Below the pieces are notes generated by a model. The model made no database searches and was not told the DNA's origin. It saw only the letters and a list, made by a program, of their open reading frames with translations. This document shows, in pieces, positions 1-24,982 of a stretch of DNA of 32,000 nucleotides. The position numbers and the translations under genes are program-made. Source of the stretch: Pyrobaculum aerophilum str. IM2. Lineage in GTDB: Archaea; Thermoproteota; Thermoprotei; Thermoproteales; Thermoproteaceae. How positions within the stretch are numbered: the first letter of the stretch is position 1; the number at the start of each line of letters is the position of its first letter. The stretch spans positions 690,001-722,000 of the forward strand of contig NC_003364.1 in NCBI RefSeq assembly GCF_000007225.1. Reading direction: 5' to 3'.

Positions 1-2819
1 TTGCTGTAGAGCTCGTCGACGAAGCTCTTCACTGCGTTCAGCCAGCCGTTGTTGCGGATGGCGATAATGCCGTCGGTGTAGAGCTGGACTTTCCATCCGG
101 TCCCCTCTACGTATTTAACCTCCGCCTCGCCACCAAGGGCCCTAATGATAGAGGCTAACTGTTGGGCATTTTCGCGGGAGCCGCCGAATTGGGCATAAAG
201 CTCATCGCCTCTCCAATACACGGTTATGTACGTCGCCTCCTTTCCACCAAGCTTAAAGCGAATTATGGCCTTTGGCCACTGACCGCTTGTGTCTAACGGC
301 CCCCTCTCCACTGTGACGTTTCTATAGATGTAGTCTTCAACTATTGTGACAACTTCCTCTAGCTTTTTGAAAAACATTTCGTTCTTCATGTCATACGCCC
401 AGTTAATGTCGAATTTCCTTTTGACCAACTCACGCGTAACAACTTCAAAAGCGTCGGCGAATTCTGCCAGGGCGTCCCTCAGCCCGTACAGCGTGGGTAA
501 CGCTGGGACAAGCGCCTTCAGTAGCTCGTTCAGCCCGTTGCCTCCGAAGACAATATGGCGAGCATTTGTGCTTCTACGCACTGAGCTTGGCTTAAAGCCG
601 AGCTCCCTCAGCGCCCAGAGCCAGAACACAGTGAAGTGATCGCGAGTCATAAGGGGCTTCTCCTCTTGCTCGGGACCGCCAACGATAAGTCGGATTTCGC
701 CTCTATATACAGCCCCGTCGTACAGCATGGCGAAAATCACCGCAAGGGCCGCCTCCTCTCTCGGTAACTCACCCCTCTTGTACGCCTCCACGGCATATGC
801 TAGCGGGAGGAGGACGCGTAGGTACTTGCCCAGCCTGTCCACGGCCTCTTTATCGCCGTTTTTCTCAGCCTCACTCCACCGCGTTAACAGCTCTTCAACG
901 CGGCTCCAGAACTCGCCAGCGGCGGCCTCCAAGGCGACCTTTAATTCATTACTCATTTTAACATCAGCCAGGGCCGTCCTTAGATCAACGTTTATTTTAA
1001 CGTCAGCTGGCGTTGCCTTCAGATCAACGCCGCCTTCTGACTGCTGGTTAAGTGCTGTGTTCTTTAGCTTTTCAAGCGCGGCGCGGCCTACACTCAGCAC
1101 CTCGCGCACCGTCTCAGTGTACTTGCCATCAACGCGCCATGCTGGCTTCAGTCCCTCCTCGGAGGGGTATACTCTTTCGAGGCTTATCTTGCCCTTAGCC
1201 AGCGCCCGGTAGGTAAAAGCTTGTGACAGGTAAGTGGAAGAGCAACGAACGAACTTACGTCCATGTAATAGAGTGACGTCAGTAGGCAATGCGCTAATCA
1301 CAATTATCTTTTTTATTATACTTACTGTTTCTATCATTTTCTTCCACCTCTTCTCGTCCAATTCAGCTAGCAGTTGAGAGCCAGAAGAAACAGCCTCTAA
1401 CAAACTATACACTTCCTTTATCTGTTTTATTATCTCTCCCTCAACCCTAAGTGGCGTCAACCATTTGCCAGCTTTACAAGTTGTCTTAAGGAGATTGTGG
1501 CCTTCTTTGTCTACAAACGTGATATAGATGTACTTTTTATTGTTTTCTTCTTTCTTCTCCATATGCATTTCTACGTTTTGTCGTTTGGTTAGTTCTGTTT
1601 TGATAAATGGATCTGAGAACAAAGAGATGATGTGGAGAACTAATTTGCGGTTCTCAGACGGCTTCTCCCTACCGATTAACTTGAACATATTATAGAAGCT
1701 CCTCGGTGCGTTCCTGAGGGCTGAGACGATGCTTAGGATGCTGGTCGTCCGTCCGCCCCTCTCCGCCAGCGCCCTCTCCACAGTGACGCCGAATAGGCCG
1801 CCAGTTACAAGCGATAGCAGAGCGGCCACTGCCCTCTCTCCTCTAGTGGCGTCTATGTTGGAAAGGTCGTCATGTGTTGCTTCCAACAGTGCTGTTACAT
1901 TTTCCGTAGTCACTTTTAGCCTTTCGGCAATACCGCTGACTCCGGCATCCTCCAGCTTGTATGAAATTGTGTTGAACTCTTTGGCAATTTCTTCCGCTCT
2001 CTTCCTTGCCTTCGCCTCAGCCTCTGCCAGTGCGTTCAAGTCGTTCCAAAAGTCGTCTAGGGTAAATTTACCGCTATTTACAGCGTCCTCCAGTCTTTCA
2101 AGCGCTCTATATACTCTATCCCTCAGCTCTACAAACTCCCTCAAGTGGTTTAATAGCGTGAAGGAGGCTATTAAATACGCCACCTTGTCATCGTCATCTT
2201 CAAAGACCTTTACGCTCTTGCCGGTCTCCCTAGCGCCAAGTACTGCCAGAGCCCAAAGCGCCGCGGGATCTCTTTGCTCATACCACGCCTTAGAGGCCTC
2301 CTCAAGGGCCTTTTTGTAGTTGGCGGCTTTCATCGCCTGCACATAACTAGCCAGGCGCCTTAACTCTAACACTGCATTTTCTATTTGCTTCTCATCCATC
2401 GCGTGTCTCAGCGTTGAGAAGGCGCTTACCGCCTTCTCCACAACGCCTTTGTCAAGGCCTAGCTGGGCGGCGCGCTCTACAATCTCTTTCTCGCTTGCTG
2501 TTTTTGTCAATACCGCATTCCCTACTTCCTTCCACTTATCGCCAACGCCAGCCGCCTTTGCCAGTCCCGCTATCGCCCCGGCGTTAAGCGCTATGTGGTT
2601 CTGCCAAAGCGTGTAGTCCAATTGCTGTGCTGCAAGCCAGCTTATTAGCCCGGCCGCCGCGGCGGCCATTATGAACCAATGCGCTCTTACGTAGTCAAGG
2701 ACTCTCGCCACCGCCTCTACAAACAGCTCGTAAAGCCTCTGCAACGTTATTCTCGCCTTTTCGAATACCTCCCTCGCGGCTTCATACGCCGCCTCGGCGG
2801 CCCTTCTTACGTACTCCAC
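1..2819 (-). CDS. Large repeat-family protein, copy 1 (PaREP2b-like by recollection). It is 3'-partial (runs off the window start) and its 5' end is degenerate.
   Basis: Hand translation of the minus strand is open for 939 codons, from GTG 2819..2817 down to position 3 (VEYVRRAAEAAYEAAREVFEKARITLQRLYELF ... GWKVQLYTDGIIAIRNNGWLNAVKSFVDELYS). It is collinear with + strand ORFs 20914..21942 plus 21986..24982. It is not in the supplied ORF track, presumably because no stop codon falls inside the window. An in-frame TAA lies at 2897..2895, and there is no ATG before 2671. Confidence 0.8.
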   Translation of the reverse strand, partial: MEYVRRAAEAAYEAAREVFEKARITLQRLYELFVEAVARVLDYVRAHWFIMAAAAAGLISWLAAQQLDYTLWQNHIALNAGAIAGLAKAAGVGDKWKEVGNAVLTKTASEKEIVERAAQLGLDKGVVEKAVSAFSTLRHAMDEKQIENAVLELRRLASYVQAMKAANYKKALEEASKAWYEQRDPAALWALAVLGARETGKSVKVFEDDDDKVAYLIASFTLLNHLREFVELRDRVYRALERLEDAVNSGKFTLDDFWNDLNALAEAEAKARKRAEEIAKEFNTISYKLEDAGVSGIAERLKVTTENVTALLEATHDDLSNIDATRGERAVAALLSLVTGGLFGVTVERALAERGGRTTSILSIVSALRNAPRSFYNMFKLIGREKPSENRKLVLHIISLFSDPFIKTELTKRQNVEMHMEKKEENNKKYIYITFVDKEGHNLLKTTCKAGKWLTPLRVEGEIIKQIKEVYSLLEAVSSGSQLLAELDEKRWKKMIETVSIIKKIIVISALPTDVTLLHGRKFVRCSSTYLSQAFTYRALAKGKISLERVYPSEEGLKPAWRVDGKYTETVREVLSVGRAALEKLKNTALNQQSEGGVDLKATPADVKINVDLRTALADVKMSNELKVALEAAAGEFWSRVEELLTRWSEAEKNGDKEAVDRLGKYLRVLLPLAYAVEAYKRGELPREEAALAVIFAMLYDGAVYRGEIRLIVGGPEQEEKPLMTRDHFTVFWLWALRELGFKPSSVRRSTNARHIVFGGNGLNELLKALVPALPTLYGLRDALAEFADAFEVVTRELVKRKFDINWAYDMKNEMFFKKLEEVVTIVEDYIYRNVTVERGPLDTSGQWPKAIIRFKLGGKEATYITVYWRGDELYAQFGGSRENAQQLASIIRALGGEAEVKYVEGTGWKVQLYTDGIIAIRNNGWLNAVKSFVDELYS

Positions 2820-2875
2820 TGCCCTCTCAAAGGCCCCCTCCCTCGCCAGCCGCCGTGCTGATGTACAAGGCAGTT

Positions 2876-2901: not shown

Positions 2902-3822
2902 ATGAAAACACTACTTGACTTTTTGAAAGAGGGCGCTGAGGACCGCGTTGAGAGCGTTGAGGCCCGCGCGCCGTGTAAGCGGGTTAAACTGCCAGAGGCC
3001 TTTGAACTGCCGCGGAGGTTTGGCGTCTCGTGGGGGTGCCTGACGCAGAAAGCCTTTAGGGGTGTGGACGCCGTTGTGGCTGAGGGAGGAGCGAAGGGGG
3101 TGCGTTTCCGCTACGTGTTGCCATACGACGCTGAAATGGGCTATTACGCAACGTACAAAAGGCGCGAAGAGAGGGAGGAAAAGAGCGACAGACTACCGCA
3201 GTATTTCGCGGATGCCCTATACGAGCTGGCGGCTAAGTACCAAATTGAAATTACCCGCGATATTTACGTCCTTGTAAACGGCGCGGAAGTGGACAAGACC
3301 GTGTGTTATCAAAAGCGGAGCGCAGAGGCATGCGCCCGCGCCATAGAGGAGTACATAAGGGACGAGTGGCCCCGCGTATTGGAGTGGCGTAGGAAGAAGG
3401 AGGAGGAGCGGAGGAGGCTTGACCTGAAAAGCCAAGTCATGGCCGCCCTTAAGGACTGGTACCGCAGATGTTTTAAGTGGCCCATCATGCCGGGGGAGGA
3501 GGGCAAATTAGTGAAGCGGCTAGAGCTTTACTACGGAATGTGCGAAATGGCTAAGGCCGTAATCGCCGAATACGGCGAAAAATACGCCGAGCCTCTAATC
3601 AGCGAGTATGCCCTTAGGCGCGCATTTTGGTGGGAAGGGGAGTGGAGGGGAAAGCCCATGTCGTGTTTCGTGACGGAGAAAAAGGCTGTGTGTAAAGTAG
3701 GCGATAAGATGGCAACGTTTTATGTATTTGACACGCCCCACGGCGTGTACCTAAGGCCAGAAATCAAGCTTGTAGACGACTGGATTAAAGTGGCGCATAG
3801 AGGAAATGAGAGTCAAGGCTAA
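2902..3822 (+). CDS. Small repeat-family protein, full-length copy (PaREP2a-like by recollection), 306 aa
   Basis: ORF in the track. It is paralogous to 19547..20389 (-), and its C-terminal 90-125 aa recur at 14053..14322 and 20379..20756 (motif [39 protein letters not shown]). It is divergent from large copy 1. Confidence 0.8.
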
Positions 3823-3832
3823 AATATTTATA
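3821..3832 (+). promoter_or_regulatory. TATA-like box for rps5
   Basis: AAAATATTTATA is centred about 27 nt upstream of in-frame GTG 3854. It overlaps the stop codon (3820..3822) of the small repeat gene. Confidence 0.55.
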
Positions 3833-3853
3833 CGTCCATTGTTTGCCACGTAC

Positions 3854-4462
3854 GTGAGCGTCATCGATTTAAGTCTTTGGGAGCCTCGTACAGAGCTGGG
3901 GAGAATGGTGAAGGAGGGGAAGATCAGGACAATTGACGAGATATTTGCCAATAACTATATCATAAAAGAGCCTGAGATTGTAGATATCTTATTGCCTGGG
4001 CTGAAACAAGAGCTCCTTAATGTAAATCTAGTGCAAAGGCAGACTCACGCCGGCGAGCGCAACCAGTTTCAGGCAGTCGTCGCAGTGGGGAACGAGGATG
4101 GTTATGTTGGAGTCGGCATTGGAAAAGCCAGGCAAGTAAGACAGGCCATTGAAAAAGCCACTAGGGAGGCGAAGCTCAATCTCGTGCCAGTTAGACGCGG
4201 ATGCGGCTCGTGGAAGTGCTCATGCGATGAGCCTCACAGCGTGCCGTTTGTGGTGAGGGGGAAGTCCGGTAGCGTGGAGATCACCCTAATCCCAGCTCCG
4301 AAGGGCGTTGGGCTTGTGGCCGGCGATGTGGCCAAGGCGGTGCTTAGGCTGGCGGGGATAAAAGACGTGTGGACAAAGACCCGGGGAGACACGAGGACTA
4401 CTCTTAACTTCGCCATGGCAGTATACAACGCCCTGAGAAACACCTATTACTTTAAGATATGA
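3854..4462 (+). CDS. rps5: 30S ribosomal protein S5 (uS5)
   Basis: The translation has the typical uS5 core ([42 protein letters not shown] ... [17 protein letters not shown]). I moved the start from the track's ATG 3806 to GTG 3854 on TATA spacing. The 3806 extension overlaps the upstream gene. Confidence 0.9.
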
Positions 4463-4995
4463 TGGCGCAACAGGAAAAGGTTGTATACCCCCGCTACGCC
4501 GTAATTAGGCTGAGGGGCATACCCACAACTCCTAGGGATATCGCCGTAACGCTTGACTTGCTAAGACTCAGGAGGAAGTTCACAATGGTTGTGGTTAAGG
4601 GAAGTCCCAGCGTGATGGGGATGATACAGAAAGTAAATGACTGGGTTACTTGGGGCGAAATAGACGCCGACACTCTCGCCGAGGTTTTGCGGAAGCGGGG
4701 GAGGATCGTCGGCGACAAGCCGCTTACTCTTGAATACCTCCAGAAGTGGGGGTGGCACTCTTTTGAGGAGATTGCTCTGGCGTACGTGGCCGGGGAGATA
4801 GATTCGCTGTCATGCGGCAAAAAGATGAGAATAAAAGAGGGAGAGAGGCCGCCGTGCATTCCCTATTTAAAGCCGTTTTTCAGATTGCACCCGCCCCGCG
4901 GCGGCTTAAACAGCGTTAAGCTACACTTCTCAGTTGGCGGCGATTTGGGGTACAGAGGCCCCCTAATTAATGATTTAATCCGCCGAATGCTTTAA
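4459..4995 (+). CDS. rpl30: 50S ribosomal protein L30 (uL30)
   Basis: Archaeal L30 pattern: [53 protein letters not shown]. The ATGA start/stop overlap with rps5 indicates an operon. Confidence 0.85.
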
Positions 4996-5931
4996 ACATT
5001 TCTGTAGAGCCGCCTTAATTCTAGCCGCAGTCTCCTCGGGAGTAGTGTCCAGTGTAAATAGCGACGCTCCCAACTCGGCGCCGGCTGCATGTTTAAGCTT
5101 CCCGTCTGGCCTATACATGCCGTATATTTCAAAGTGTAAGTGGTAGTACTGCGTTGGCCGTGGAAGCGGCGCTTGGTGGAGCACCATTATATAGGGCATT
5201 GGTATCCCCGCCACTTGTTTTAAGGCGCATAGCGTTATTTTCAACGCCTCGGCTAAATCCGCCACCTCCTCGTCTGTTAACTCAGTGAGCAGGCTTCTGT
5301 GCCTCTTGGGGTATATGTGGACTTCGTGGGGCCATTTCGCATAAAACGGCACAAACGCCTTCCAATTGCGGTTTTGGAAGACAAGGCGTTTTTCCTCTTT
5401 TTCTACAATGCGGCAGTGGAGGCACGAGCCGTGTTTTACATACCACTCGTAGGAGGCTTGAAGCTCTGCGCGGACTCTTGGGGGAACCACCGGAAGTATG
5501 TATATTTGAGAGTGTGGGTGGGTGAGGGAGACTCCAATCTCCTTACCCTTGTTTCTAAAAAAGAGGAAGTATGCGGCGTTGCCCTCTTTCTCGGCTTTTC
5601 TCTGAGCCTCAGCCACCGCCGTCAAAATCTTTTTTATTTGGCCTAGGGGCAAGTCGCTGAGGTCGTCAACATCGTGTTGAGGGGTTTCCACCACTACTAG
5701 CGAGGAGCCGCGCGCGGGGATTACCTCATATAAATCTTCGGCTGTCGGCTCTGGGGGGTTTTCCGTAACCACGGGGTATCTATTTGGGAGTATTAGCACG
5801 TCCCACCCGCGGCCGGTCTCGGGGGCGCCGGGGCAGAAGGGGCATGCGCCCTCTGGTTGCCAGGGGCGTTTAAGCCTGTGGGGCGAGACTAAGATATACT
5901 CCCCCGTGAAGGGGTCTTTCCTAATCTCCAT
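4975..5931 (-). CDS. galT: Galactose-1-phosphate uridylyltransferase (HIT superfamily)
   Basis: CPFCPG zinc motif, SPHRLKRPW, and the active-site signature HPHSQIY (the HxHxQ of GalT). It overlaps the galK stop by 11 nt. Confidence 0.85.
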
Positions 5932-7042
5932 ATTTAAGCCCTTCGTCTACTTCAACGGCCCACCACTTCACGGCGCTTGAGCGCCTTCCTATTTTCTCGG
6001 CGGTTTCTCTATTGGGAGCCAAGGCGATTACTACGCCTCCAAGACCTGCGCCTGAGAGCTTAGCCCCATATGCGCCGGCGTTTACAGCCTCTTCTACTAG
6101 GCGATCTAACTCCGGCAACGACACGTCGTACAGCTCGGATAGGAGTCTGTGCTGTAGCAACATCTCGGCGCCTACTTTTCTCAAAATCTCCTCTGTCGGC
6201 AAGTCTCTGCGTTTTAAATATGCAAGCGCCCTTTCGGTGGATCTCTGCATTTCTAAAGTGAAGAGTACTCTTTCCCTCAAGGGGCTTGGCAATTTTTCCA
6301 CTGCATTGGGCTTGTCGTATAACACGCCCCAGGGGAAGTCCCAATACCCCTCGCTGTAAATGCCCAGCTCTGCCTTTAACATCTCCACGGCTTGTTGAAG
6401 TTCCGCCTGCCGTTTTGAGTGTACCTCAGCGGTGCTGTGCCGAACGCCGCTGTCTAACACGACAAAAACTCCTCCCGGCATTTCCAACGCCTCTACTCTC
6501 ACCGGGGGCTTAGGGTGTATCACGGCTACTTTCCCAAAGGCGGAGCCGTATTGGTCAAGCCTCCCGCACGGCACGCCTAAGATCTCCCTTTCAGCCACAT
6601 AGGCCAGCTCGGCCACAGTGGCTCTGTCAGCCTCGCGATTAGCGAGCCTCAACGCGGCTGCTATTAAACTTACTAACAACGCGGCGCTACTGGCCATCCC
6701 AGCCCCTATGGGTATGTCGGAGCGGACCACTGACTTAAAGCCCCTGAGGTAAACGCCGTGTTTCCACAGCGCCAGGACTGCCGCCTTTACGTAATCACAG
6801 AAGGTCCTCCCGGCGATTTGCGGGTCTTGGAAAATGCACTTCTCTCCTGTGTTTAACGACTCTATTTCAAAGACCTTGGACGCCTCCATTTCCACCCGCG
6901 TCCTCATGTTCACAGCCACAGAGACCACGGGCAGGCCTTTATAGTCCTGGTGGGTGTTTAAAAAGTCCAGCCGGCCCGGGGCAGAGGCCTTTACCAAAGC
7001 CTCCACACTAATACGGCCGCTATTGCAAACATTAAAACCCAC
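5921..7042 (-). CDS. galK: Galactokinase-like GHMP kinase
   Basis: GHMP motif PIGAGMASSAALLVSL, an N-terminal APGRLDFLNTHQDY resembling the galactokinase signature, and C-terminal KLSGAGLGG. The alternative start GTG 7006 would cut the overlap with the upstream gene from 52 to 16 nt. Confidence 0.8.
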   Translation of the reverse strand: MGFNVCNSGRISVEALVKASAPGRLDFLNTHQDYKGLPVVSVAVNMRTRVEMEASKVFEIESLNTGEKCIFQDPQIAGRTFCDYVKAAVLALWKHGVYLRGFKSVVRSDIPIGAGMASSAALLVSLIAAALRLANREADRATVAELAYVAEREILGVPCGRLDQYGSAFGKVAVIHPKPPVRVEALEMPGGVFVVLDSGVRHSTAEVHSKRQAELQQAVEMLKAELGIYSEGYWDFPWGVLYDKPNAVEKLPSPLRERVLFTLEMQRSTERALAYLKRRDLPTEEILRKVGAEMLLQHRLLSELYDVSLPELDRLVEEAVNAGAYGAKLSGAGLGGVVIALAPNRETAEKIGRRSSAVKWWAVEVDEGLKYGD

Positions 7043-7587
7043 ATGACTGGATTTGACCTAATCACCTTGTTGCCGTCTAGTGGGGGCAAGGGCAGTAGGT
7101 TAAATAACGCAAGCCACGCGTTTATATAGGCGAAGAAATGCCAGAAGTAAGATTGCGTGGCTGTCAATAATGCCAGTCCCAAGATGGCGAAGGCTATATT
7201 GGCGAGAGGCCCAGCCGCCGCTATGAAAAACATGTCGCGTTTCTCATCTCCCTGCCTATACAACCTATACGGCGACACTACCACGGACCCAGGCGCGGCG
7301 AATACGAAGCCGAAGAGTAGAGGGAAGATTATCGCCAGAGGAAGTAAGTAATAGTCTGCTTTATACATGGCGAAGTACCCAAGCCTCTTCGCCACTTCTC
7401 TATGCGCCAATTCGTGGCCAATAAAGGCAAAGAGGAGTACAAACGCTACATAGGGCATTAACGACAGAACTCTAGACCAATTCAACCCGCGGGCCATGTC
7501 GCCGGAGAGAGCTATTGAAAATCCCAGAGTTAATACTAACAAAGATATCGCCATGTCAATAAGCTCTTGTCTCCTCTCCTCATACAC
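6991..7587 (-). CDS. M50 (site-2 protease type) membrane metalloprotease
   Basis: HELAHR (HExxH) lies in a hydrophobic context together with NLLPLPPLDGNK (the NxxPxxxLDG motif). There are several hydrophobic helices. The start is a GTG with a TATA box 7605..7616. Confidence 0.7.
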   Translation of the reverse strand: MYEERRQELIDMAISLLVLTLGFSIALSGDMARGLNWSRVLSLMPYVAFVLLFAFIGHELAHREVAKRLGYFAMYKADYYLLPLAIIFPLLFGFVFAAPGSVVVSPYRLYRQGDEKRDMFFIAAAGPLANIAFAILGLALLTATQSYFWHFFAYINAWLALFNLLPLPPLDGNKVIRSNPVMWVLMFAIAAVLVWRLW

Positions 7588-7604
7588 GTTTCTCTCGAAT
7601 TCCA

Positions 7605-7616
7605 GATTTATAAATC
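7605..7616 (-). promoter_or_regulatory. TATA-like box for the protease-galK-galT cluster
   Basis: The A/T box (+ strand GATTTATAAATC) is centred about 24-26 nt upstream of GTG 7587. Confidence 0.5.
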
Positions 7617-7720
7617 ATTGCAACAGTAAATGTCGCCGCTCGCGAGCTTGCACAGCGGAAGTAACTCCAAATGCTATTGCAACTTATAGGGCCTCTGGCC
7701 ATTTCGCCTTTCAGAGCCGC

Positions 7721-7951
7721 CTATATCATCCTTGTCAGAATCTTAATTGCCCTGTCAACATCGCGCCGGGAGATGAGGTAGACGCCAGGCTTGTGTCTAA
7801 CCGCAACGCCCCGCTCAACAAGCGCGTTTAATATCTTCCTCACCTCGGCGTTGCAACTGCGATCTACCCCGCAGAGATCTACTATTCTCACAGCCACTAC
7901 TGTTCCACGTTCTTTCTTCTTGAAGTGAAGGTAATATATAAGCGCAGACAT
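7721..7951 (-). CDS. Small putative winged-helix DNA-binding protein (76 aa from ATG 7951; the track ORF starts at GTG 7963)
   Basis: VRIVDLCGVDRSCNAEVRKILNALVERGVAVRHKPGVYLI reads like helix-turn-helix plus wing. No family was recognised. Confidence 0.4.
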   Translation of the reverse strand: MSALIYYLHFKKKERGTVVAVRIVDLCGVDRSCNAEVRKILNALVERGVAVRHKPGVYLISRRDVDRAIKILTRMI

Positions 7952-8046
7952 TTGCTTGAACACGTTATTAATAAGTCAGTTAAAAGCAACTGCTGTGTCG
8001 GCTCCGCAGACGGTAAGAACTCTATATATACCCGTCGTTTAGAGCC

Positions 8047-9759
8047 ATGGATTTGGTAAAGAGGGTACTCTCAGTGAGGGCGGCCACAACGCCGAGGAGG
8101 GGGCCGGGAGGCGTTTTGTACTACCTCAGCGACGTGACTGGGCATATGCTTTTGTGGAAATTCGACGGCGGTAAACACGACGTTGTCTTGCCTTGGGACG
8201 ACAGAATTGGCGACTACAGAGTTTCAAAAGATGGGGCGCTGGCCTTTGTTTCAGATAAAGACGGCGATGAGAAGTGGCGGTTATATTTGGCGGACAATGA
8301 GGTTTACGAAATTTCTGCCGAGGGGGTGAACAACCTCGGCGCTTGGTCGCCAGACGGCTTAAAACTAGCCTTTACGTCAACTAGAGATGGCCAATCTGAT
8401 TTCAATGTATATGTTTATGACAGGTCTTTAAGAAAGGCGGAGAAAATCGCCGAAATCCCCGGCATAAACGTCGTTGAGGAGTGGAGCGAGGCGGGCGTGT
8501 TTATTACTCATTACGAGACTAATTTAGACAGCACTATATATTTGTATAAAGACGGCCAGTTGAGGGAATTAACAAAACACAGCGGCGAGGCCTTAAACCA
8601 TTCTCCCCGATACGTGGGCAACGGCAAGCTCTTATTCCTCACAAACGCCGACTGGGAATACGTGGGGATAGCGCAAATGGACTTATCCACTGGCAACTGG
8701 AAATATATTGTACAGCTCGACAGAGACATAGAGCATTTCGACGTCTGGGGGAGCTATTTAATATTTGCCGTGAATGAGGAGGGAAGGTCTGGGCTTTACC
8801 AAATGCACATCCCCTCAGGCCTCACGTATAAACTCGCCTCGCCTAGCGGCGTCGTCACGCATTTAGATTTTAAAGACGGCGTTCTCGCCTTTTCTCTGTC
8901 AAGCATAAACAAGGGGCATGAGGTCTACATATATCAACAAGGCGCCGTGAGGCAAATAACCCACTCCCCCAAATTCGGAGCGCCGATTCATAATATCCCG
9001 GAGCCGGCGTCGGTGTGGTACCCCAGTTTCGACGGCAGAAAAATTCAAGCAAATCTCTACTATCCCCCCGGCGAGGCAAAGGGAGTAGTAGTGTACCTAC
9101 ACGGAGGGCCTGAAAGCCAAGACCGCCCGGAGTTCAAGCCCCTAATCGCGGCGCTTTTAATAGCGGGATATGCCGTGGCAGCCCCCAACTACAGAGGCAG
9201 CACCGGCTTCGGCAAAACCTTCACTCACCTAGACGACTTAGAGAGGCGGTGGGACGCGATAAAAGACGTCGTGGCGTTTGGAAAATGGCTCGAATCCCAG
9301 GGAATAGCTAAGAAAAAGCCCTGCGTCTTAGGGGGATCTTACGGGGGATACTTAACGCTTATGGCCCTGGCAACAGCCCCCGAGATGTGGAGCTGCGGCG
9401 TTGAGATGGTGGGAATTTTCAACTTAGTGACATTCCTCGAGAGAACCGCCCCTTGGAGGAGGAGGTACAGAGAGGCCGAATACGGCTCATTAGATAAGCA
9501 CAGAGAGCTATTGCAGCAGCTCAGCCCAGCTACACACGTGGAGAAAATCCAAGCGCCGTTGCTGGTTGTACACGGCGTCAACGACATAAGAGTGCCGCTG
9601 TACGAAGCCGAACAGTTAGTACAAAGGCTGAGAGAACTGGGCAGAGACGTTACGTTTATAGTACTCCCCGACGAGGGGCACACTATCACTAAAATTCACA
9701 ATAGAGTGCGCGTCTACAGCGAGGTAATTCAGTTTATTGAAAAACAGTTCAGCGTTTAA
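8047..9759 (+). CDS. S9-family serine peptidase (acylaminoacyl-peptidase / prolyl oligopeptidase type)
   Basis: The N-terminal part has beta-propeller-like repeats (SPDGLKLAF, SKDGALAFVSDKDG). The C-terminal part is an alpha/beta hydrolase with nucleophile elbow GGSYGGYL, HGVNDIRVP and PDEGH. A TATA box lies at 8011..8020. Confidence 0.85.
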   Translation: MDLVKRVLSVRAATTPRRGPGGVLYYLSDVTGHMLLWKFDGGKHDVVLPWDDRIGDYRVSKDGALAFVSDKDGDEKWRLYLADNEVYEISAEGVNNLGAWSPDGLKLAFTSTRDGQSDFNVYVYDRSLRKAEKIAEIPGINVVEEWSEAGVFITHYETNLDSTIYLYKDGQLRELTKHSGEALNHSPRYVGNGKLLFLTNADWEYVGIAQMDLSTGNWKYIVQLDRDIEHFDVWGSYLIFAVNEEGRSGLYQMHIPSGLTYKLASPSGVVTHLDFKDGVLAFSLSSINKGHEVYIYQQGAVRQITHSPKFGAPIHNIPEPASVWYPSFDGRKIQANLYYPPGEAKGVVVYLHGGPESQDRPEFKPLIAALLIAGYAVAAPNYRGSTGFGKTFTHLDDLERRWDAIKDVVAFGKWLESQGIAKKKPCVLGGSYGGYLTLMALATAPEMWSCGVEMVGIFNLVTFLERTAPWRRRYREAEYGSLDKHRELLQQLSPATHVEKIQAPLLVVHGVNDIRVPLYEAEQLVQRLRELGRDVTFIVLPDEGHTITKIHNRVRVYSEVIQFIEKQFSV

Positions 9760-9762
9760 GCT

Positions 9763-9789
9763 GTGGAAGGGGGAGGGGAGGATTAGGCG
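9763..9789 (+). repeat. Purine-rich junction motif, instance B (GTGGAAGGGGGAGGGGAGGATTAGGCG)
   Basis: 23 of 27 positions match 2876..2901. The next ~30 nt (GATAAAAAACCTTTTTTCAATTTTCAG) still resemble the first codons of the 2902 gene, with ATG changed to ATA. It abuts the 3' end of the large-gene fragment. Confidence 0.55.
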
Positions 9790-9817
9790 ATAAAAAACCT
9801 TTTTTCAATTTTCAGTT

Positions 9818-10740: not shown

Positions 10741-10968
10741 GGCCTCTGCCGTAAGCGTCTCGTAATGCCTCTGTGCGGCCTCCCTTGTCCTCTCCGCCCT
10801 CTCCGCCGATAGCTCCGCCAGCCTCTCGGCGTATTTCAAGTGCTACCGGGCCATGCGTATTTCCTCGTAAGCCGCCCTGGCCCTAACCGCGTGCGCCACC
10901 GCCGTGAGGACGTCCCTCTCCATACCCACGGCCTTTTTCGCCCTCTGTATCAACTCCTCATACGCCTT

Positions 10969-13394: not shown

Positions 13395-13395
13395 A

Positions 13396-14052: not shown

Positions 14053-14341
14053 ATGAGGTATACCATCGCCGAATACGGCGAGAAATACGCCGAACCGCTA
14101 ATCAGCGAATACGCCCTGAGGAAGGCCTTTTGGTGGGAGGGAGAGTGGCGCGGTAAGCCGATGTCGTGTTTCGTGACGGAGAAAAAGGCGATATGCAAGA
14201 TAGGCGATAAGATGGCCGCGTTTTATGTATTTGACACGCCGCAGGGAGTGTACCTAAGGCCAGAAATCAAGTTAATAGACGACTGGATTAAAGTGGCGCA
14301 TAGAGGAGATGACGGCAGTTAAGGCGACATTTAAAGTGGCG
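14053..14341 (+). pseudogene. C-terminal fragment of the small repeat-family gene (copy 3), plus a short 5'-end remnant of a following copy
   Basis: The 89-aa ORF matches the last ~85 aa of 2902..3822 almost residue for residue. Homology starts near 14060. After the stop (14320..14322), GTTAAGGCG...AAAGTGGCG resembles the start of 19547..20389. Confidence 0.85.
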
Positions 14342-14400
14342 TATGAATTCTGCGGGGCAACGTGCCGCGTGTAAAGACACCAGCTCTTAGCGCTTAAAGT

Positions 14401-16509: not shown

Positions 16510-17163
16510 TTGGAAATGCTTCTCCTCGTCTAGCTCAATAGAGAGAATAAGCGCCCTCAACACCGGGTCGCCAATTCTGTACAAATCGGCGATACTCTCC
16601 CTCATAGAGCCCTCCTCAGCCGCCAACACTTCTAACTCCTCCTCGTTTAAATCAATTCCCTCAGCCCTCAACCTCCCCCCTAGATAATCTAGGATCATTG
16701 TCAAAATCTCCGCGTGGCGCAAGCTGTCAGCGGCAATTTGCATAAACAAAGCCCTGATCAAGGGGTTCTTCACTTTGTAAGAATAAGTCATTGCCCTAGA
16801 GGCCGTCTCTTGTTCCAGCCGAATCCTAGACCGAATAAGCTCTTCTAAATCCGCATGCTGGCCCCTCTGCGACATTATATTAGAAATCACCTTCGCCAGC
16901 TCAGTCAAGTCAACAGGCCCTCTTATCCCTTTCCTCGCCGCGTCGACTAAAATATCGGCGTGGTTTTTAATGAGGCCCATAACTCTTTCGTCCTTCGCGA
17001 GCTCTTGCACAAGCTCTCCGCCCCTCTTCCCCGAGATGTACATAGAGACCGCGGCAGCGGTTAGCCCCAGCAACTTGGCAGTCTCGTTGACGCTCAGCCC
17101 CCTCTCCACCAGCTCCCTCGCCAGCAACGCCCTAACCGCGGAAAGCGCCCTCTCAAAAGACAC
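16465..17163 (-). CDS. Putative HTH transcriptional regulator with a C-terminal helical (ferritin-like?) domain
   Basis: The N-terminus LSVNETAKLLGLTAAAVSMYISGKRG is a classic helix-turn-helix. The rest is helical with LRHAEIL and EEKHFQL. The start is a GTG, with the A/T box 17180..17192 about 23 nt upstream. Confidence 0.5.
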   Translation of the reverse strand: MSFERALSAVRALLARELVERGLSVNETAKLLGLTAAAVSMYISGKRGGELVQELAKDERVMGLIKNHADILVDAARKGIRGPVDLTELAKVISNIMSQRGQHADLEELIRSRIRLEQETASRAMTYSYKVKNPLIRALFMQIAADSLRHAEILTMILDYLGGRLRAEGIDLNEEELEVLAAEEGSMRESIADLYRIGDPVLRALILSIELDEEKHFQLIRTLQLAARQGKH

Positions 17164-17512: not shown

Positions 17513-17551
17513 CGCCAAGGCGTGCGGCCTCTGCGCGGCTGTGACGGTAGT

Positions 17552-17564: not shown

Positions 17565-17582
17565 GCGGTTTGTTAAGTGCCT

Positions 17583-18014
17583 ATGTACAGAGTTTACGAC
17601 CGGAGAGTGCAACTTCCGATTAAAATCAGCAAGGGGGCTGATGAGCAGGCGAGGCTTAGAAAGCTGGAGAGGTGGCCTAGAGAGGCCGGCACCACGGTGG
17701 TTCTCGACGAGTCAGGCTCTAATTTTAACAAGCTAGTTCAGATCTACGCCGCCGACTACGGCTTAGAGCTCGGCGAGAAGAAGTGGGACGTGAAGACTGA
17801 GGGCGAGTCCATAAAGGCTAGGCTCGAAATCCCCATGTTAAAAAGCGGTGAGGTAAAAGGCCGCGCGGTAATGGAGGCGGAAATCCCCAAGGCCCCCTCG
17901 GGGGAGGAGGGCAATAACGCGGTTTATACTGCCGACGTCCACTATTATATTGAAATTGACGAGCAAGTCCTGGCGGAGTCCACCACTAGCGGCGTCGTGG
18001 AGTTCACTCTGTAA
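17583..18014 (+). CDS. Hypothetical protein (143 aa), translationally coupled to malQ
   Basis: ORF in the track (starts there at GTG 17577). ATG 17583 fits the TATA spacing. The stop and the malQ start share TAATG at 18012..18016. No motif recognised. Confidence 0.55.
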   Translation: MYRVYDRRVQLPIKISKGADEQARLRKLERWPREAGTTVVLDESGSNFNKLVQIYAADYGLELGEKKWDVKTEGESIKARLEIPMLKSGEVKGRAVMEAEIPKAPSGEEGNNAVYTADVHYYIEIDEQVLAESTTSGVVEFTL

Positions 18015-19420: not shown

Positions 19421-19483
19421 TTTAAAACACTGGTTTTGTTAGGACTGGCCCCCCTATATGCCCTCTCCCCCAGATACTCCGAC

Positions 19484-19551
19484 GACACGCCGAATTTTCT
19501 GGGTAGGGAAAAGGCCTCTGGGAGGGGGACTTTTACACACGCCGCCTTAAC
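19484..19551 (-). pseudogene. 5'-end remnant of another small repeat-family gene, placed head to tail after 19547..20389
   Basis: The minus strand reads VKAACVKVPLPEAFSLPRKFGVS, against MTVKAVKAACVKVALPEAFSLPRKFGVS of the neighbouring gene. It lacks an ATG, and homology stops near 19484. Confidence 0.7.
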
Positions 19552-20389
19552 TGTCGCCGCACCTGTGAACCACTTTAATCCACTCCTGGTAGAGGGGGCT
19601 CTCAGGCTTAATGTACACGCCGTCTGTTGTTGTCCTCACTAAAAACTTCCATTTGGCGTTCCCCCACTTGCATACCGCCTCCCTCTCCGTCACAAAACAC
19701 GACGCGGGCGCCCCCATCCACTCCCCGTCCCACCAAAAGGCCCTCCTCAGCGAGAAGTCAGAGGCGTATAGTGACGCCCTCCCTCCCAGCTCTCTCTTGA
19801 TAAAGTTGTATAGCTGGCACATGGCAAAATACTCCTCAAGCCTCTTTACAATCCCCTCTATCAAGCCCATCGGCTCGCGGCCGAAACACTGCCTATGCCA
19901 CTGGGCCACCGCTCTGTACAACTCCCTCCTCAACTCCCTCCACGCCTTCTGGCTCTTAAGGGCCTCTCTGGGCGGGTTTCTGAGAAAGTCTATGACGCCT
20001 CTAACACATCCCTCGGCCGTCGGCCTCTTGCACAGCCACTTGTCCACCTCAACGCCGTTTACATAAACAGCGTCTTGCGCCAGCTCAACTTCGTATTTCG
20101 CCGCCAGCTCGTAAAGCGCGTCTGCAAAATACTGCGGCAGTCTGTAGCTTCCCTCTTCCCTCTCCTCTCTCCGCTTGTAAACTGCCAGATAGCGTTTAGC
20201 GATTGCGTCGTAGGGTAGCACGTAGCGGAAATACAGGCCTTTAACGCCCCCCTCTGCCACAACGGCGTCAACGCCGTAGAAGGCCCCTTGCGTGAAACAC
20301 CCCCAAGAGACGCCGAATTTGCGCGGTAAGGAAAAGGCCTCTGGTAGCGCCACTTTTACACACGCCGCCTTAACCGCCTTAACTGTCAT
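19547..20389 (-). CDS. Small repeat-family protein, second full-length copy (diverged), 280 aa
   Basis: ORF in the track. It aligns with 2902..3822 over [61 protein letters not shown] and RRAFWW.GEW.G...SCFVTE.EAVCK. Confidence 0.8.
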   Translation of the reverse strand: MTVKAVKAACVKVALPEAFSLPRKFGVSWGCFTQGAFYGVDAVVAEGGVKGLYFRYVLPYDAIAKRYLAVYKRREEREEGSYRLPQYFADALYELAAKYEVELAQDAVYVNGVEVDKWLCKRPTAEGCVRGVIDFLRNPPREALKSQKAWRELRRELYRAVAQWHRQCFGREPMGLIEGIVKRLEEYFAMCQLYNFIKRELGGRASLYASDFSLRRAFWWDGEWMGAPASCFVTEREAVCKWGNAKWKFLVRTTTDGVYIKPESPLYQEWIKVVHRCGDS

Positions 20390-20858
20390 CGCCCCTATAC
20401 GCCACTTTAATCCAGTCGTCTATTAACTTGATTTCAGGCCTTAGGTACACGCCGTGGGGCGTGTCAAATACATAAAACGTTGCCATCTTATCGCCTACTT
20501 TACACACAGCCTTTTTCTCCGTCACGAAACACGACATGGGCTTTCCCCTCCATTCCCCTTCCCACCAAAAGGCCTTCCTCAGGGCGTATTCGCTGATTAG
20601 CGGTTCGGCGTATTTCTCCCCGTACTCAGCAATTGCGGTCTTTGCCATTTCGCACATGCCGTAATACAGTTCAATCCGCCTTACTAATTTGCCCTCCTCG
20701 CCCGGCATGATGGGCCACTTAAAACATCTGCGGTACCAGTCCTTTAACGCCGCCATTACCTGACTCTTAAGCTCAAGTCTCCTCTGCTCCTCCTCCTTCT
20801 TCCTCCACTCCAGTACGCGGGACTCCTCGTTCTTTATGTAATCTATGGCGCGTATGCG
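20379..20858 (-). pseudogene. 5'-truncated small repeat-family gene (about the C-terminal 160 codons)
   Basis: The track ORF is 20379..20756. The frame stays open upstream to 20858 (RIRAIDYIKNEESRVLEWRKKEEEQRRLELKSQV) and still matches residues ~148-180 of 2902..3822. Roughly 110 nt are identical to 3650..3760. The first ~145 codons are absent. Confidence 0.8.
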
Positions 20859-20890
20859 TTAAAATATTGCCTTAAATCTCGCTTAAGTTG

Positions 20891-20900
20891 TTTTTAAAAA
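20891..20900 (+). promoter_or_regulatory. A/T box upstream of large-gene copy 2
   Basis: TTTTTAAAAA is centred about 18-19 nt upstream of GTG 20914. That spacing is shorter than at the other genes here. Confidence 0.35.
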
Positions 20901-20913
20901 GGCGCGGAAATAC

Positions 20914-23900
20914 GTGGAAGAGGCGCCGGGATGCATCGCGGCGGTAGAGGAGGCAGTCAAGCCGGCAGTTGTAGCCGCCGCCGGCCTGGCCGGATACGCG
21001 GCGCTACACGACGGGCTGTACTCAACGGCTGTTGTGTCAGCGACGGCCGCGGCGGTAGTACTGGCGAGGGAGGGGGCCTTTGAGAGGGCAGTGGAGTACG
21101 TAAGAAGGGCCGCCGAGGCGGCGTATGAAGCCGCGAGGGAGGTATTCGAAAAGGCGAGAATAACGTTGCAGAGGCTTTACGAGCTGTTTGTAGAGGCGGT
21201 GGCGAGAGTCCTTGACTACGTAAGAGCGCATTGGTTCATAATGGCCGCCGCGGCGGCCGGGCTGATGGCGTGGGTAGTGGCGCAACAACTGGACTACACG
21301 CTTTGGCAGAACCACATAGCGCTTAACGCCGGGGCGATAGCGGGACTGGCAAAGGCGGCTGGCGTTGGCGATAAGTGGAAGGAAGTAGGGAATGCGGTAT
21401 TGACAAAAACAGCAAGCGAGAAAGAGATTGTAGAGCGCGCCGCCCAGCTAGGCCTTGACAAAGGCGTTGTGGAGAAGGCGGTAAGCGCCTTCTCAACGCT
21501 GAGACACGCGATGGATGAGAAGCAAATAGAAAATGCAGTGTTAGAGTTAAGGCGCCTGGCTAGTTATGTGCAGGCGATGAAAGCCGCCAACTACAAAAAG
21601 GCCCTTGAGGAGGCCTCTAAGGCGTGGTATGAGCAAAGAGATCCCGCGGCGCTTTGGGCTCTGGCAGTACTTGGCGCTAGGGAGACCGGCAAGAGCGTAA
21701 AGGTCTTTGAAGATGACGATGACAGAATAGCATATCTAATAGCCTCCTTCACGCTATTAAACCACTTGAGGGAGTTTGTAGAGCTGAAGAACAAGTCCTA
21801 CAAGGCGCTTGAAAGGCTGGAAGGAGCTGTGAAAAGCGGCAGATTTGCCCTTAGCGACGTATGGGGTGACCTCAACGTGTTGGTAGAAGCCGCGGAAAGG
21901 GCGAAGGGAGGTTACCAACGAGCTGGACAGAATTGCATATAGGCTGGAGGGAGCTGGTTACAGCGGAATTGCCGAAAGGCTGAGAGTGGCTACGGAGAAC
22001 GTAATAAGGCTTGCGGAGGCTACGCGAGACGATCTTCCCAAGATAGACGCCACTAGAGGAGAGAGGACAGTGACCGCTTTGCTATCGCTTGTAACTGGCG
22101 GCCTATTCGGCGTCACTGTGGAGAGGGCATTGGCGGAAAGAGGCAAATGGACAGTAGGCGCTCTTGGCATTGCGTCAGCAGTTAGGAGTACACCCTCAAA
22201 CTTCTACAACGCGTTTAGCTCAGTCAGCGGCGATGAGAAGCCTTCAGAGGCCAAAAAGCTGACCTTCCGCATTGCCACTTTGCTGGCAGATCCCGCAATG
22301 AGAGAAATACTGGCCGGCAGACAGGGCGTGGAAGTACGCGTAGAGCAAAAAACAGAAAACGGCAAAAAGTACATTTATATCACGTTTGTAGACAAGGACG
22401 GCCACGAGCTCCTCAAAGCCCCATGGGATGCCGACAGGGGGTTAATGCCGCTTTGGGCTGAGGGAGAGGTAGTAGAGCTGTTTAAAGAAGTTGGCAAATT
22501 GGCTGTGGCTGTCTCCTCCGGCTCTAAACCGCTGGAAGAGCTGAACGAGGAGGAATGGAAAAAAGTGGTAGAAACAGTGAGGAGGGTGAAAAAGGCAATT
22601 GAATGGACCGTCAAGGCCGTTGCAATCGGCGCACTGCCCACAGACGCTGTCCTATTACCTGGGTCTGAGTACGTCCGCGGTACCTCCTCCTACCTCTCGC
22701 AGACATTTACCTATTGGGCGCTAGCTAAGGACAGAATTGGGCTCGTAAGAGTATACCCCTCCGAGGAGGGGCTAAAGCCGATGTGGCGCGTTGAGGGCAA
22801 GTACACTGAGGCGGTGCGCGAGGTGCTGAGTGTAGGCCGCGCCGTGTTTGAAAATCTATTGGCGCTTAACCAGCAGTTGAAAAGCGGCATTGATCTGAGG
22901 ACGGCTCTAGCTGACGTTAAAATGAACGATAAATTAAAAGCCGATTTGGAACAGGCGGCCGGCGAGTTCTGGAGCCGCGTTAATGAGCTGTTAGCACGGT
23001 GGAAACAGCTAGAAAGGGAGGTAAACGAGAAAGAAGACGAAGAGAGGGAAAAGGTAATAAATGAGATAGACAAACTGGGCAAGTACCTCCGCGTCCTCCT
23101 GCCACTGGCGTACGCAGTGGAGGCGTACAAGAGGGGAGAGCTGTCTAGAGAGGAGGCGGCTCTGGCGGTGATTTTCGCAGTGTTGTACGATGGGACTGTG
23201 TTTAGAGGCGAAATTCAGCTTGTAGTAGGCGGCCCCGAGCATGAAGAGGAGCCGATTATGACTCACAACCACTTCACCGTGTTCTGGCTTTGGGCGCTGA
23301 AGGAGCTCGGCTTTAAGCCCAGCGCAGTGTATAGGGGCAGAGGCTCGCAGATCATTGCCTACAGAGGCGACAAGCTGAACGAATTGCTGGAGGCGATAAC
23401 GCCGATGCTACCCTTGTTGTACCAGCTTAGAGATGCCATTGCAAAATTCGCCGATGCGTTTAGAGTTGTTACGCACGAGGCGATTAAAAGGAAATTCGGC
23501 ATTGAGTGGGCATATGACGTGAGGAACGAAAGGTTTTTCAAAAAGCTAGAGGAAGTTGTTACAATGGCAGAGGACTACGTCTACAGAAACATCGCCGTAG
23601 AGAGGGGGCCGCTGGACACGAGCGGAAGCCATCCGAAGACCGTAATCCGCTTCAAGTTAGACGGGGAGGAAATAGCATCTATCAACGTGTACTGGACTGG
23701 TAAAGTACTACATGCTAAGTTCGCCGGCTCTCGCGAAAAGGCGGAGCGCCTGGCCTCTATCTTAAGGGCTTTAGGCGGCCAGGCTGAGGTTAAGCGCGTA
23801 GGTAAGAGATGGGTAGTCCAGCTCTACACCGACGGCATTGCTGCCATTCGCCACGGCGACTGGCTTAAAGCAGTGAGAGGCTTTGTGGACGAGCTTAAAG

Positions 23901-24982
23901 ACAAGGGACTGATCAGCGAGAATAGGTACGATCAGTTAATGAGGGATCTAGAGGCCGGCCCCAACACCGTTAAATTCGCCGGTGTGGAGTTCACGGTTAA
24001 CTACAGAGGCCAGAGCGACAAAATACACGTACGATATCACCCGGGTAGCGAGGCCTCTAAAAACGCTATTGTGGACACCCTTAAGGCGAGGGGTTTGAAG
24101 GAGGGTGTACACTTCACTGTTAATATAGTGGGCGCTGAACGTTACGAAATCCGCGTTACGAAAGAGGCATACGCCAAGGCCGTTGAGGCATTGGCGCAGA
24201 GCGGGCTGAGGGAGGGAGAACACTACTCCGTTTACGGCAAAAGGCGCGAAATCCGCGTCAGGGCGGAGCACAAAGACGCCGTCATAAACGCCTTGAAGGG
24301 GGCAGGGCTGGAGGAGGGCAAGGACTTCACGGTGAGAAGCGGTGGAGTTTATACAATCTACATCACTTACGACGGCCTTAGGGAGATTCAGCGCATGGCG
24401 CTGAATGGCGACTTGGAGGCTGAAAAGTTCATTAGGGAGCTTGAGGACGTGTTAAAGCGCAGACACGGCGATGATGCAGTGAAAAAGCTGATAGAGATTC
24501 TGACACCGGCGAGAGAGGAGGGGACTATAGATCTGCCACTAACGGTTTACGACGATAGGGGCAACTTAATCGCCCGCGTTGTAGATCTGAAGTACGAATT
24601 CGTGAAAGGAAAACGGAAGGGCAGACGGTCAACGGGCCAACCCGTAAACCAGTGCGCCGGGGAGGACTGCCGTCTGCGCGTTATTGTGGAGTACGAGGTA
24701 GGGGGAGAGAGGAGGCAATTGAAGATGGAGTGGTATTGGAGCAAGGTTCAGAAAAAGAAAGGTGAGACAACAGTCACGTACTTCTTCGAAATAGCGCGGC
24801 CAACGGTGAAGGACGATGTGGAAGTTGCCGTGCTGAAAACGCTAACAGGAAAGGCGAAGAGGGGCGAAGTATATCTCCTAGCTGACCAGCTAGACGCCCT
24901 GCGCCGGTTCAAACCGTTGAGGGACGCCGTAGATAAGTGGAGGGAGGGAAGGCCGCAAAAGGGCTCTACCAGCCGTCTTTAA
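20914..24982 (+). pseudogene. Large repeat-family gene, copy 2 (PaREP2b-like by recollection), split by a frame change into 342-aa and 998-aa ORFs
   Basis: Copy 1 reads straight through the equivalent point (LNALAEAEAKARKRAEEIAKEFNTISYKLEDAGVSGIAERLKVTTENV). In copy 2 the first frame gives LNVLVEAAERAKGGYQRAGQNCI-stop, while the next frame gives REVTNELDRIAYRLEGAGYSGIAERLRVATENV. The frame switch must lie within 21877..21942. Confidence 0.8.

Follow-up and report, generated by a model that had tools for sequence, protein, structure and literature searches.

PaREP2 of Pyrobaculum aerophilum, a head-to-head gene pair with a predicted LAGLIDADG-type domain and the possible features of a selfish mobile cassette

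Why does the chromosome of Pyrobaculum aerophilum str. IM2 carry repeated copies of one divergent gene pair, and by what means could this pair move? The question is raised by a stretch of 32,000 nucleotides (nt), here termed the window (assembly GCF_000007225.1, contig NC_003364.1, positions 690,001 to 722,000 of the forward strand), in which a large gene, PaREP2b, and a small gene, PaREP2a, lie head to head in three copies of a unit, PaREP2. These are copy 1 (PaREP2b on the minus strand at 1–2819, PaREP2a on the plus strand at 2902–3822), the inverted copy 2 (PaREP2a genes, minus, at 19476–20858; PaREP2b, plus, at 20914–24982) and a reduced copy 3 (PaREP2b, minus, at 9818–10740; PaREP2a, plus, at 14053–14345). 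An original prediction made from the DNA sequence alone had placed three copies here, and the repeat analysis of the window and the Pfam matches agree with it. Similarity between the copies is far above chance, with inverted repeats of 842 nt (2008–2849 versus 21061–21902; 93 %), 429 nt (3391–3819 versus 20376–20804; 89 %) and 467 nt (10184–10650 versus 24141–24607; 79 %) and a direct repeat of 248 nt (3562–3809 versus 14065–14312; 88 %). The explanation favoured here, to which belief and doubt attach in about equal measure, is that PaREP2 is a two-gene cassette, selfish and mobile, found in Pyrobaculum and its relatives, in which a LAGLIDADG protein would make the initiating DNA break.

Membership of the PaREP2 families, which had previously been proposed, is confirmed by profile matches to both. 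The PaRep2b model (PF07775) matches copy 2 (21986–24979; expectation value (E) 5e-275, 913 bits), copy 3 (9818–10714; E 2e-144, 482 bits) and copy 1 (1–2819; E 5e-80, 270 bits), and the PaRep2a model (PF07903) matches four pieces (2902–3819, 19547–20389, 20379–20756 and 14053–14322) with E values of 1e-46 to 1e-67 and scores of 213, 224, 212 and 157 bits. All window pieces thus exceed the Pfam gathering scores (20.4 bits for PaRep2b and 25 bits for PaRep2a), and near-identical database proteins carry the label 'PaRep2a/PaRep2b protein [Pyrobaculum aerophilum]'. Neither Pfam family has a functional annotation, and the profile searches gave no well-characterised function for either protein. The two models reach only the C-terminal 512 amino acids (aa) of PaREP2b and 122 aa of PaREP2a, and therefore miss a LAGLIDADG helix and a conserved N-terminal patch in the former and the N-terminal domain of the latter. 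That the PaRep2b model starts after the LAGLIDADG helix may explain the absence of a link to this enzyme family from the family annotation. No PaREP2 protein matched a transposase, integrase or recombinase family in Pfam or NCBIfam, and no meaningful match for either protein was obtained in NCBIfam, PADLOC or PHROGs; in PADLOC, two marginal CARF-like matches (E 0.005–0.01) concern one distant relative only, and the window proteins gave none. Viral contigs scanned with the N-terminal PaREP2b open reading frame (ORF; 342 aa) yielded no relative.

The prediction had recognised no catalytic motif in either protein. This does not stand for the large protein, which contains a degenerate LAGLIDADG helix whose last residues are an invariant Asp-Gly; alignment and structure modelling together point to a LAGLIDADG-type domain in PaREP2b. 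For the 998-aa ORF of copy 2, AlphaFold gave a predicted local distance difference test score (pLDDT) of 82 and a predicted template modelling score of 0.65, with pLDDT above 90 in the LAGLIDADG-like region. There, the order modelled for residues 388–460 (23147–23365, plus strand) is helix, two strands, helix, two strands, and Asp402-Gly403 (23189–23194) closes the first helix. When this model was compared with the PDB using Foldseek, LAGLIDADG homing endonucleases made up eight of the fifteen top matches, including I-PanMI, I-OnuI variants, I-Tsp061I (probability 0.90), I-GzeII, I-GpeMI, I-LtrWI and I-CpaMI. Distant homologues contain canonical motifs at the aligned position ('SGAIDGDGYVS' and 'ATAIAGDGTVG'), the Asp-Gly (D28 G29 in the alignment) is invariant in all 22 aligned sequences, and 11/22 homologues match the Pfam family LAGLIDADG_3 (PF14528; best E 1e-6), several of them above the 22.5-bit threshold. 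The homologous domain of copy 1 ('AVIFAMLYDGAV...') lies at 540–761 on the minus strand, with the Asp codon at 717–719.

Searches with the joined 1,356-aa PaREP2b as query yielded full-length relatives in Pyrobaculum and a distant group of hot-spring metagenome proteins, ~1,200 aa long. As mapped by blastp, the most conserved stretch across this superfamily is an N-terminal patch (residues 8–145; 20935–21348, plus strand, supported also by hydropathy and alignment), in which two hydrophobic helices surround a helical hairpin. The second of these helices (21226–21291) is likely a membrane anchor on the basis of its composition, with a Kyte-Doolittle hydropathy of 1.7 in the window protein and, by hand calculation, ~2.0 in the distant clade. 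The model and direct reading of the sequence point to at least four further helix-strand-strand modules of the same sequence pattern, three of them in tandem at residues 689–793 (24050–24364), within the region covered by the Pfam PaRep2b model (23387–24955, plus strand). Long variants of 1,670–1,850 aa also occur (P0052, P0058, P0059, P0062, P0070 and positions 3220–11286 of locus L008), with ~500–700 extra N-terminal residues that have no Pfam match, and their conserved patch is therefore internal. The L008 gene lies between a 918-aa ORF, which precedes it on its own strand, and rpoB, and has no head-to-head small gene.

Close relatives of the small protein are few, with 25 clusters among 5.8 billion proteins and 60 representatives found when profiles were searched exhaustively, and a scan of genome contigs with PaREP2a, using a single peptide pattern, found three loci. 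Its structure model is confident only at residues 100–300, which form a long helix, a small helical bundle and a six-strand sheet, the N-terminal domain not being modelled. Foldseek comparison against the PDB and viral structures returned nothing significant, and assignment to a PH-like or biotinyl-domain fold was rejected on account of the weak matches; profiles of the small-protein superfamily and of the PaREP2b N-terminus likewise found nothing among PDB sequences. Pyrobaculum or Thermoproteus-type sources account for all 3,555 clusters of the small-partner family of the distant clade. Profile alignment of PaREP2a with one distant small partner using hhalign gave no relation. The two are tied together by two-domain proteins such as P0243, whose N-terminal part matches the PaREP2a profile and whose C-terminal half is 72–78 % identical to distant small partners. 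In the joint alignment twelve residues are invariant, including four cysteines (C135, C144, C255 and C264), which could form a metal site or disulfides, as far as the sequence suggests. The cysteines fall into two pairs with an 8-residue spacing each, C135/C144 closing the N-terminal domain and C255/C264 within the C-terminal one. A short form is the usual partner beside the large gene. The distant-clade partners at the loci found by protein look-up are short forms of 126–147 aa with the C-terminal domain only, and partner matches in the metagenome census mostly cover only the C-terminal half of the PaREP2a query. Because it has the same short-form architecture and a ratio of non-synonymous to synonymous substitution rates (dN/dS) of 0.09, the 125-aa PaREP2a gene of copy 2, formerly read as a fragment, is probably a normal short-form partner and not debris. 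Small genes also follow one another in tandem, each stop overlapping the next start ('GATGACAGTTAAGG').

The head-to-head arrangement is general across the PaREP2 superfamily. A divergent PaREP2a/PaREP2b pair was found in 10/11 loci retrieved by protein look-up, the sole exception being a 1,761-aa long variant adjoining rpoB. A metagenome scan with the N-terminal patch identified at least 393 loci, of which the best 80 were taken for a census; among the 76 evaluable loci, 69 (91 %) have a PaREP2a-superfamily gene on the opposite strand upstream of the large-gene start. The divergent gap measures ~80–95 nt in the metagenome loci where it was checked. The two genes are thus preferentially adjacent, and the conserved pairing and orientation first noted within the window extend well beyond it.

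The position of the unit differs between near-identical strains, which were found by look-ups with the PadR and rpL30 proteins of the window. In three loci (L013, L099 and L106), the flanks of which are 98.7–99.8 % identical to the window, RNase HII is joined directly to rpS5 across an 18-nt gap with no PaREP2 unit. Locus L013 corresponds to the reverse complement of window 25081–32000 (99.8 %) joined to window 3820–9899 (99.6 %), and its empty site reads '...GAAGACCGTTGGTAAATTATTTAAATAGGTTCTG...'. The element is present at this site in the window and in L014–L017 and L100–L105. RNase HII of the window lies against the 3' end of the copy 2 PaREP2b, and rpS5 against that of the copy 1 PaREP2a; the last four residues of RNase HII (KLFK) are gone, with 21 element-derived residues instead (25015–25080). 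A second site is occupied in L099 (GCA_003400025.1), where a centre-deleted PaREP2 unit of 2.25 kb (10544–12792) lies at window position 8001/8002, between an 80-aa ORF and an S9 peptidase gene, with a 2-nt GC duplication. Residues 190–306 of PaREP2a are here joined directly to residues 725–1350 of PaREP2b; neither the window nor the other assemblies covering this site have a unit there. These differences in presence and absence, together with inversion differences, among strains with near-identical flanks (98.8–99.8 %) bear out the earlier suggestion of a mobile module with rapid turnover. Two observations concern the RNase HII/rpS5 locus. The 218-aa rpS5 ORF from ATG 3806 begins inside element sequence (3806–3853), and GTG 3854, which is the start in the empty-site strain (202 aa), is probably the real one. 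In a strain with 97.6 % identity (L015, 11347–13200), a decayed unit with a 530-aa PaREP2b 3' part and a 48-aa PaREP2a 3' part adjoins RNase HII and is followed by a FecCD permease gene, not by MalQ or rpS5, forming a third flank arrangement.

The limits of the element lie at, or within ~100 nt beyond, the 3' ends of both genes. The two resolved insertions have no inverted termini, and on the PaREP2a side their ends nearly coincide ('...AGT(T/C)AAGGC(GAC)'). In the distant clade the ends on the PaREP2b side diverge straight after the stop codon. Among 45 metagenome loci with inspected flanks (L019–L098), about 17 have a near-palindromic 'CGTCTTAAACTG'-like motif 5–90 nt past the small-gene stop, with divergence thereafter, and a string similar to 'CGTCTTAAACTG' overlaps the stop of the copy 2 PaREP2b (24974–24984); matches to the motif in a degenerate search are, though, spread throughout the window. 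A 'GTCTTAAAC'-like motif was considered as a terminus; in a degenerate search it is scattered across the window (30 matches versus 9.6 expected), and is therefore not claimed as such.

Copies also recombine with one another. A tract of ~700 nt at the 5' end of PaREP2b is 97–100 % identical between copies, versus ~70 % for the rest, and is therefore attributed to gene conversion. The junction alignments show the 3' ends of PaREP2a to be mosaic, which places the crossover of an inversion in the PaREP2a C-terminal region, replacing an earlier placement in the near-identical PaREP2b 5' tract. The window equals the empty-site gene order plus the element and an inversion of 3820–25080. Two contigs of one assembly (L014 and L102) fit a single un-inverted unit between RNase HII and rpS5, and on the strength of this pair, which is unjoined, a simple occupied state is argued. 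From the sequence comparison, the layout of the window fits such an un-inverted state followed by inversion through recombination with a second, inverted unit near MalQ. Decay proceeds through frameshifts and central deletions, and centre-deleted derivatives have three independent origins (copy 3, L015 and L099). Both genes are under purifying selection, with dN/dS values of 0.19–0.31 for PaREP2b and 0.09–0.11 for the PaREP2a C-terminal domain; the copy 3 PaREP2b fragment gives 0.19 against copy 2.

Under the favoured explanation, PaREP2b would be a protein of ~1,350 aa with a hydrophobic N-terminal hairpin, probably a membrane anchor, followed by long helices, the LAGLIDADG-type fold and the module array, the C-terminal helix-strand-strand units being of the type that forms the DNA-binding saddle in LAGLIDADG enzymes. 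PaREP2a, the small partner with four invariant cysteines, would be expressed divergently from a shared control region of 50–150 nt, as a C-terminal-only short form or a two-domain long form. The LAGLIDADG domain, probably dimeric, may nick or cut the target DNA, after which the element could be copied in through recombination or microhomology-mediated repair. PaREP2a may bind the shared control region or the large protein, so as to regulate or assist.

Several findings weigh against such a course of events. Nuclease activity of PaREP2b is something we infer from sequence and model. The whole-chain Foldseek E-values are weak (0.02–0.5), the motif of the window and the P. aerophilum clade is degenerate ('AVLYDGTV') and without a direct Pfam LAGLIDADG match, and profiles of the LAGLIDADG region found nothing among PDB sequences. 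The second catalytic acidic position is not conserved, a single clade having Glu-Gly there and the window clade Arg-Asn. No characterised homing endonuclease resembles a probably membrane-tethered protein of 1,350 aa that has a partner gene, and classical homing predicts one cognate site, whereas PaREP2 elements are found at many different sites. The junction duplications are only 1 nt at one resolved site and 2 nt at the other, and no target consensus is derivable from the two. The difference at RNase HII/rpS5 could also stem from a single inversion with its breakpoint between two tandem units, instead of from insertion.

PaREP2 may alternatively be a conventional DNA transposon, with PaREP2b or PaREP2a acting as an unrecognised transposase that recognises the cassette ends and excises or copies the unit. 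The family is multi-copy and polymorphic in position, and PaREP2b has been termed a putative transposon in the P. oguniense genome paper (PMC3558965). The three independent centre-deleted derivatives keep both ends, as do non-autonomous transposons, and the stopping point on the PaREP2a side is nearly shared by both resolved insertions. Terminal inverted repeats are absent, the duplication is 1 nt at one site and 2 nt at the other, and on the PaREP2b side the distant clade diverges straight after the stop. With no transposase or recombinase match in Pfam or NCBIfam, and the LAGLIDADG domain as the sole enzyme-like domain, this explanation is considered unlikely.

The purifying selection on both genes would also suit a domesticated cellular pair, comprising a membrane-tethered DNA-binding protein on an inactive LAGLIDADG scaffold and a small regulator, whose family grew by duplication and whose copies are merely substrates for homologous recombination. 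Loss of the second catalytic position, the degenerate motif of the P. aerophilum clade and the hydrophobic N-terminal anchor are all compatible with this, and inversion and gene conversion require sequence homology only. It accounts poorly for the presence and absence of units at two intergenic sites in strains with 99 % identical flanks, one of these insertions altering the RNase HII C-terminus, and for the thousands of variants and hundreds of loci in hot-spring metagenomes. Frameshifted, truncated and centre-deleted copies are also frequent, and the Asp-Gly is invariant across the family, all of which makes domestication an improbable explanation.

The tight divergent architecture, found at 91 % of loci, also recalls a defence or addiction module, with a large nuclease-like, membrane-associated effector or toxin and a small sensor, antidote or regulator, the turnover in copy number then being the outcome of an arms race. 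A nuclease-type domain and a possible membrane anchor in the large protein fit this, as do the high variability of the family and its tie to strain-specific regions. Against this, PADLOC and PHROGs gave no match, the copies stand singly among housekeeping genes and outside defence islands, and many copies per genome with frequent decay would be unusual for a defence system. As toxicity of either protein is purely conjectural, a defence role is viewed as doubtful. Integrated virus or plasmid remnants, to which the patchy distribution and the tie to variable regions might point, are a most improbable source, considering that the units are only two genes long with no integrase and no nearby tRNA gene, the viral contig scan with the 342-aa PaREP2b ORF gave no relative, no PHROG family was matched, and PaREP2a had no Foldseek counterpart among viral structures.

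Among known systems, the proposed cassette can be compared with free-standing LAGLIDADG homing endonuclease genes (for example archaeal I-Tsp061I and the I-OnuI/I-PanMI group). PaREP2b shares with them the LAGLIDADG helix with its invariant Asp-Gly, followed by a predicted helix-strand-strand core, as well as matches of its relatives to LAGLIDADG_3, and is likewise selfish-looking, multi-copy and polymorphic in presence, in short gaps beside housekeeping genes. It differs in being four to eight times larger, with a hydrophobic N-terminal patch, a conserved divergent partner and an unconserved second catalytic position, cleavage being a presumed activity, and in occurring at many sites with 1–2 nt of junction microhomology. 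With insertion sequences and DNA transposons, PaREP2 has in common its multiple copies, strain insertion polymorphism, centre-deleted copies with both ends and use as an inversion substrate; it lacks their terminal inverted repeats, fixed-length duplication and recognisable transposase. LAGLIDADG-derived DNA-binding proteins without nuclease activity include WhiA-type regulators and intron maturases. PaREP2b may resemble these in having a LAGLIDADG scaffold with a possibly incomplete catalytic set, but has no helix-turn-helix, no intron context and no detected sequence or Pfam relation to them.

In P. oguniense, PaREP2 genes mark strain-specific regions, and a paREP-family gene is found at the termini of one inversion (PMC3558965). 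The PaREP2 name, the link to strain-specific regions and the inversion-terminus gene are thus already known, and the mechanism is not. A literature search, outside of which the 2002 P. aerophilum genome paper fell, returned no mention of a LAGLIDADG link, of how broad the superfamily is, of the short-form partner or of defined empty sites. A LAGLIDADG domain with an invariant Asp-Gly gives this unexplained repeat a testable mechanism, for which the empty sites supply substrates, and the pairing holds almost throughout a superfamily whose size greatly exceeds what the Pfam families indicate. If the cassette does act as proposed, selfish elements of the homing endonuclease type would extend to a large, possibly membrane-anchored two-protein form, and an important cause of genome plasticity among hyperthermophilic Crenarchaeota would be explained; if not, the recruitment of a LAGLIDADG scaffold into so large a protein would still be striking. 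More tentatively, PaREP2 might constitute a previously unrecognised class of archaeal mobile element, without inverted termini or fixed duplication, driven by a giant membrane-tethered LAGLIDADG-derived protein and a small cysteine-bearing partner, with thousands of variants across the Thermoproteaceae that reshape their chromosomes. Among the genes immediately beside the units, as listed by eye, roughly half serve translation, transcription or replication (RNase HII, rpS5, ArgRS, eIF5A, a class I aminoacyl-tRNA synthetase, rpS26e, ProRS, RpoB, RIO1 and a KH/PNO1 protein); this apparent excess among PaREP2 neighbours is suggestive but post hoc.

Within the window, the large gene of copy 2 (20914–24982) is full length and is split into ORFs at 20914–21942 and 21986–24982. 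Alignment with an intact relative (P0026 of locus L004; 1,348 aa, 79 % identical) and with L001 traces the predicted frame change to one extra G at ~21909/21910, the in silico removal of which gives a stop-free frame of 1,355 codons, close to the ~1350 that had been estimated. An 11-nt deletion was ruled out as the cause, as the difference from copy 1 resolves into the 1-nt insertion and an in-frame 12-nt indel, the latter being present in both aligned relatives (L004 and L001). Between the PaREP2b stop and the host junction at 25080/25081 lies a tail of 98 nt (24983–25080, plus strand), delimited by alignment and blastn. Upstream, the divergent control region of 55 nt (20859–20913) contains two AT-rich TATA-like boxes (20859–20869 and 20891–20900), and this junction is conserved in related loci (L004, L100 and L102). 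The small genes of copy 2 had been placed at 19484–20858; their PaREP2a content stands, and they are now resolved into four pieces spanning 19476–20858. The short form (20379–20858, minus) consists of the 125-aa ORF (20379–20756), with the C-terminal domain only, preceded by 34 in-frame homologous codons before the ATG and by a TAA directly upstream at 20859–20861. The 280-aa long form (19547–20389, minus; Pfam E 6e-67) is a divergent paralogue of the 306-aa protein of copy 1, with ~53–55 % identity in alignment. A 76-nt remnant (19476–19551, minus) overlaps its stop; identified from direct repeats and 3'-end sequences as the 5' end of one more PaREP2a gene, it marks a tandem PaREP2a array.

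In copy 1, PaREP2b (1–2819, minus; E 4.8e-80) has 939 open codons reaching the left window edge; its start codon, GTG 2819, leaves it 59 codons short of copy 2 at the 5' end. The DNA homology to copy 2 ends at 2849 in the alignment, and the first 49 codons are therefore missing; the same type of 5' junction is found again in a related locus (L001) and in an annotated protein (P0030). The divergent intergenic region of 82 nt (2820–2901) is, upstream of 2849, unrelated to the copy 2 spacer. The 306-aa PaREP2a long form (2902–3822, plus; E 8e-64) comprises, according to the structure model, an N-terminal domain, a long helix and the C-terminal PaRep2a domain. As the junction alignments set the element/flank junction at 3819/3820, its stop codon TAA comes from the flank.

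Copy 3 retains, as predicted, only the 3' ends of both genes, each matched by its Pfam model, and these keep the outer 3' ends in the correct mutual orientation, head to head. The PaREP2b fragment (9818–10740, minus) includes a 298-aa ORF (9818–10714; E 2.4e-144, model positions 228–512), with homology extending to ~10729–10740. The PaREP2a fragment (14053–14345, plus), delimited by repeats and 3'-end comparison, includes an 89-aa ORF (14053–14322; E 2.3e-46) and is directly followed by a remnant of the next PaREP2a start. The centre is swapped for 3.3 kb of unrelated low-GC DNA (10741–14052; 39–43 % GC versus ~53 % elsewhere), which looks like foreign DNA lodged within the unit. All genes of this island are on the minus strand, and encode an ABC-transporter ATPase (12708–13445), a hydrophobic 195-aa membrane protein (12031–12618) and a 176-aa ORF without Pfam match (10969–11499).

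The scans for tRNA genes and Rfam families found none in the window. The genes flanking the units are ordinary housekeeping genes, including rpS5, rpL30, galT, galK, M50 and S9 peptidases, spermidine synthase, MalQ, RNase HII, PadR and NAD synthase. Two further ORFs are unrelated to PaREP2, namely a 145-aa ORF without Pfam match directly upstream of MalQ (17577–18014) and a gene for a 232-aa protein that combines a helix-turn-helix with a rubrerythrin-like domain (16465–17163).

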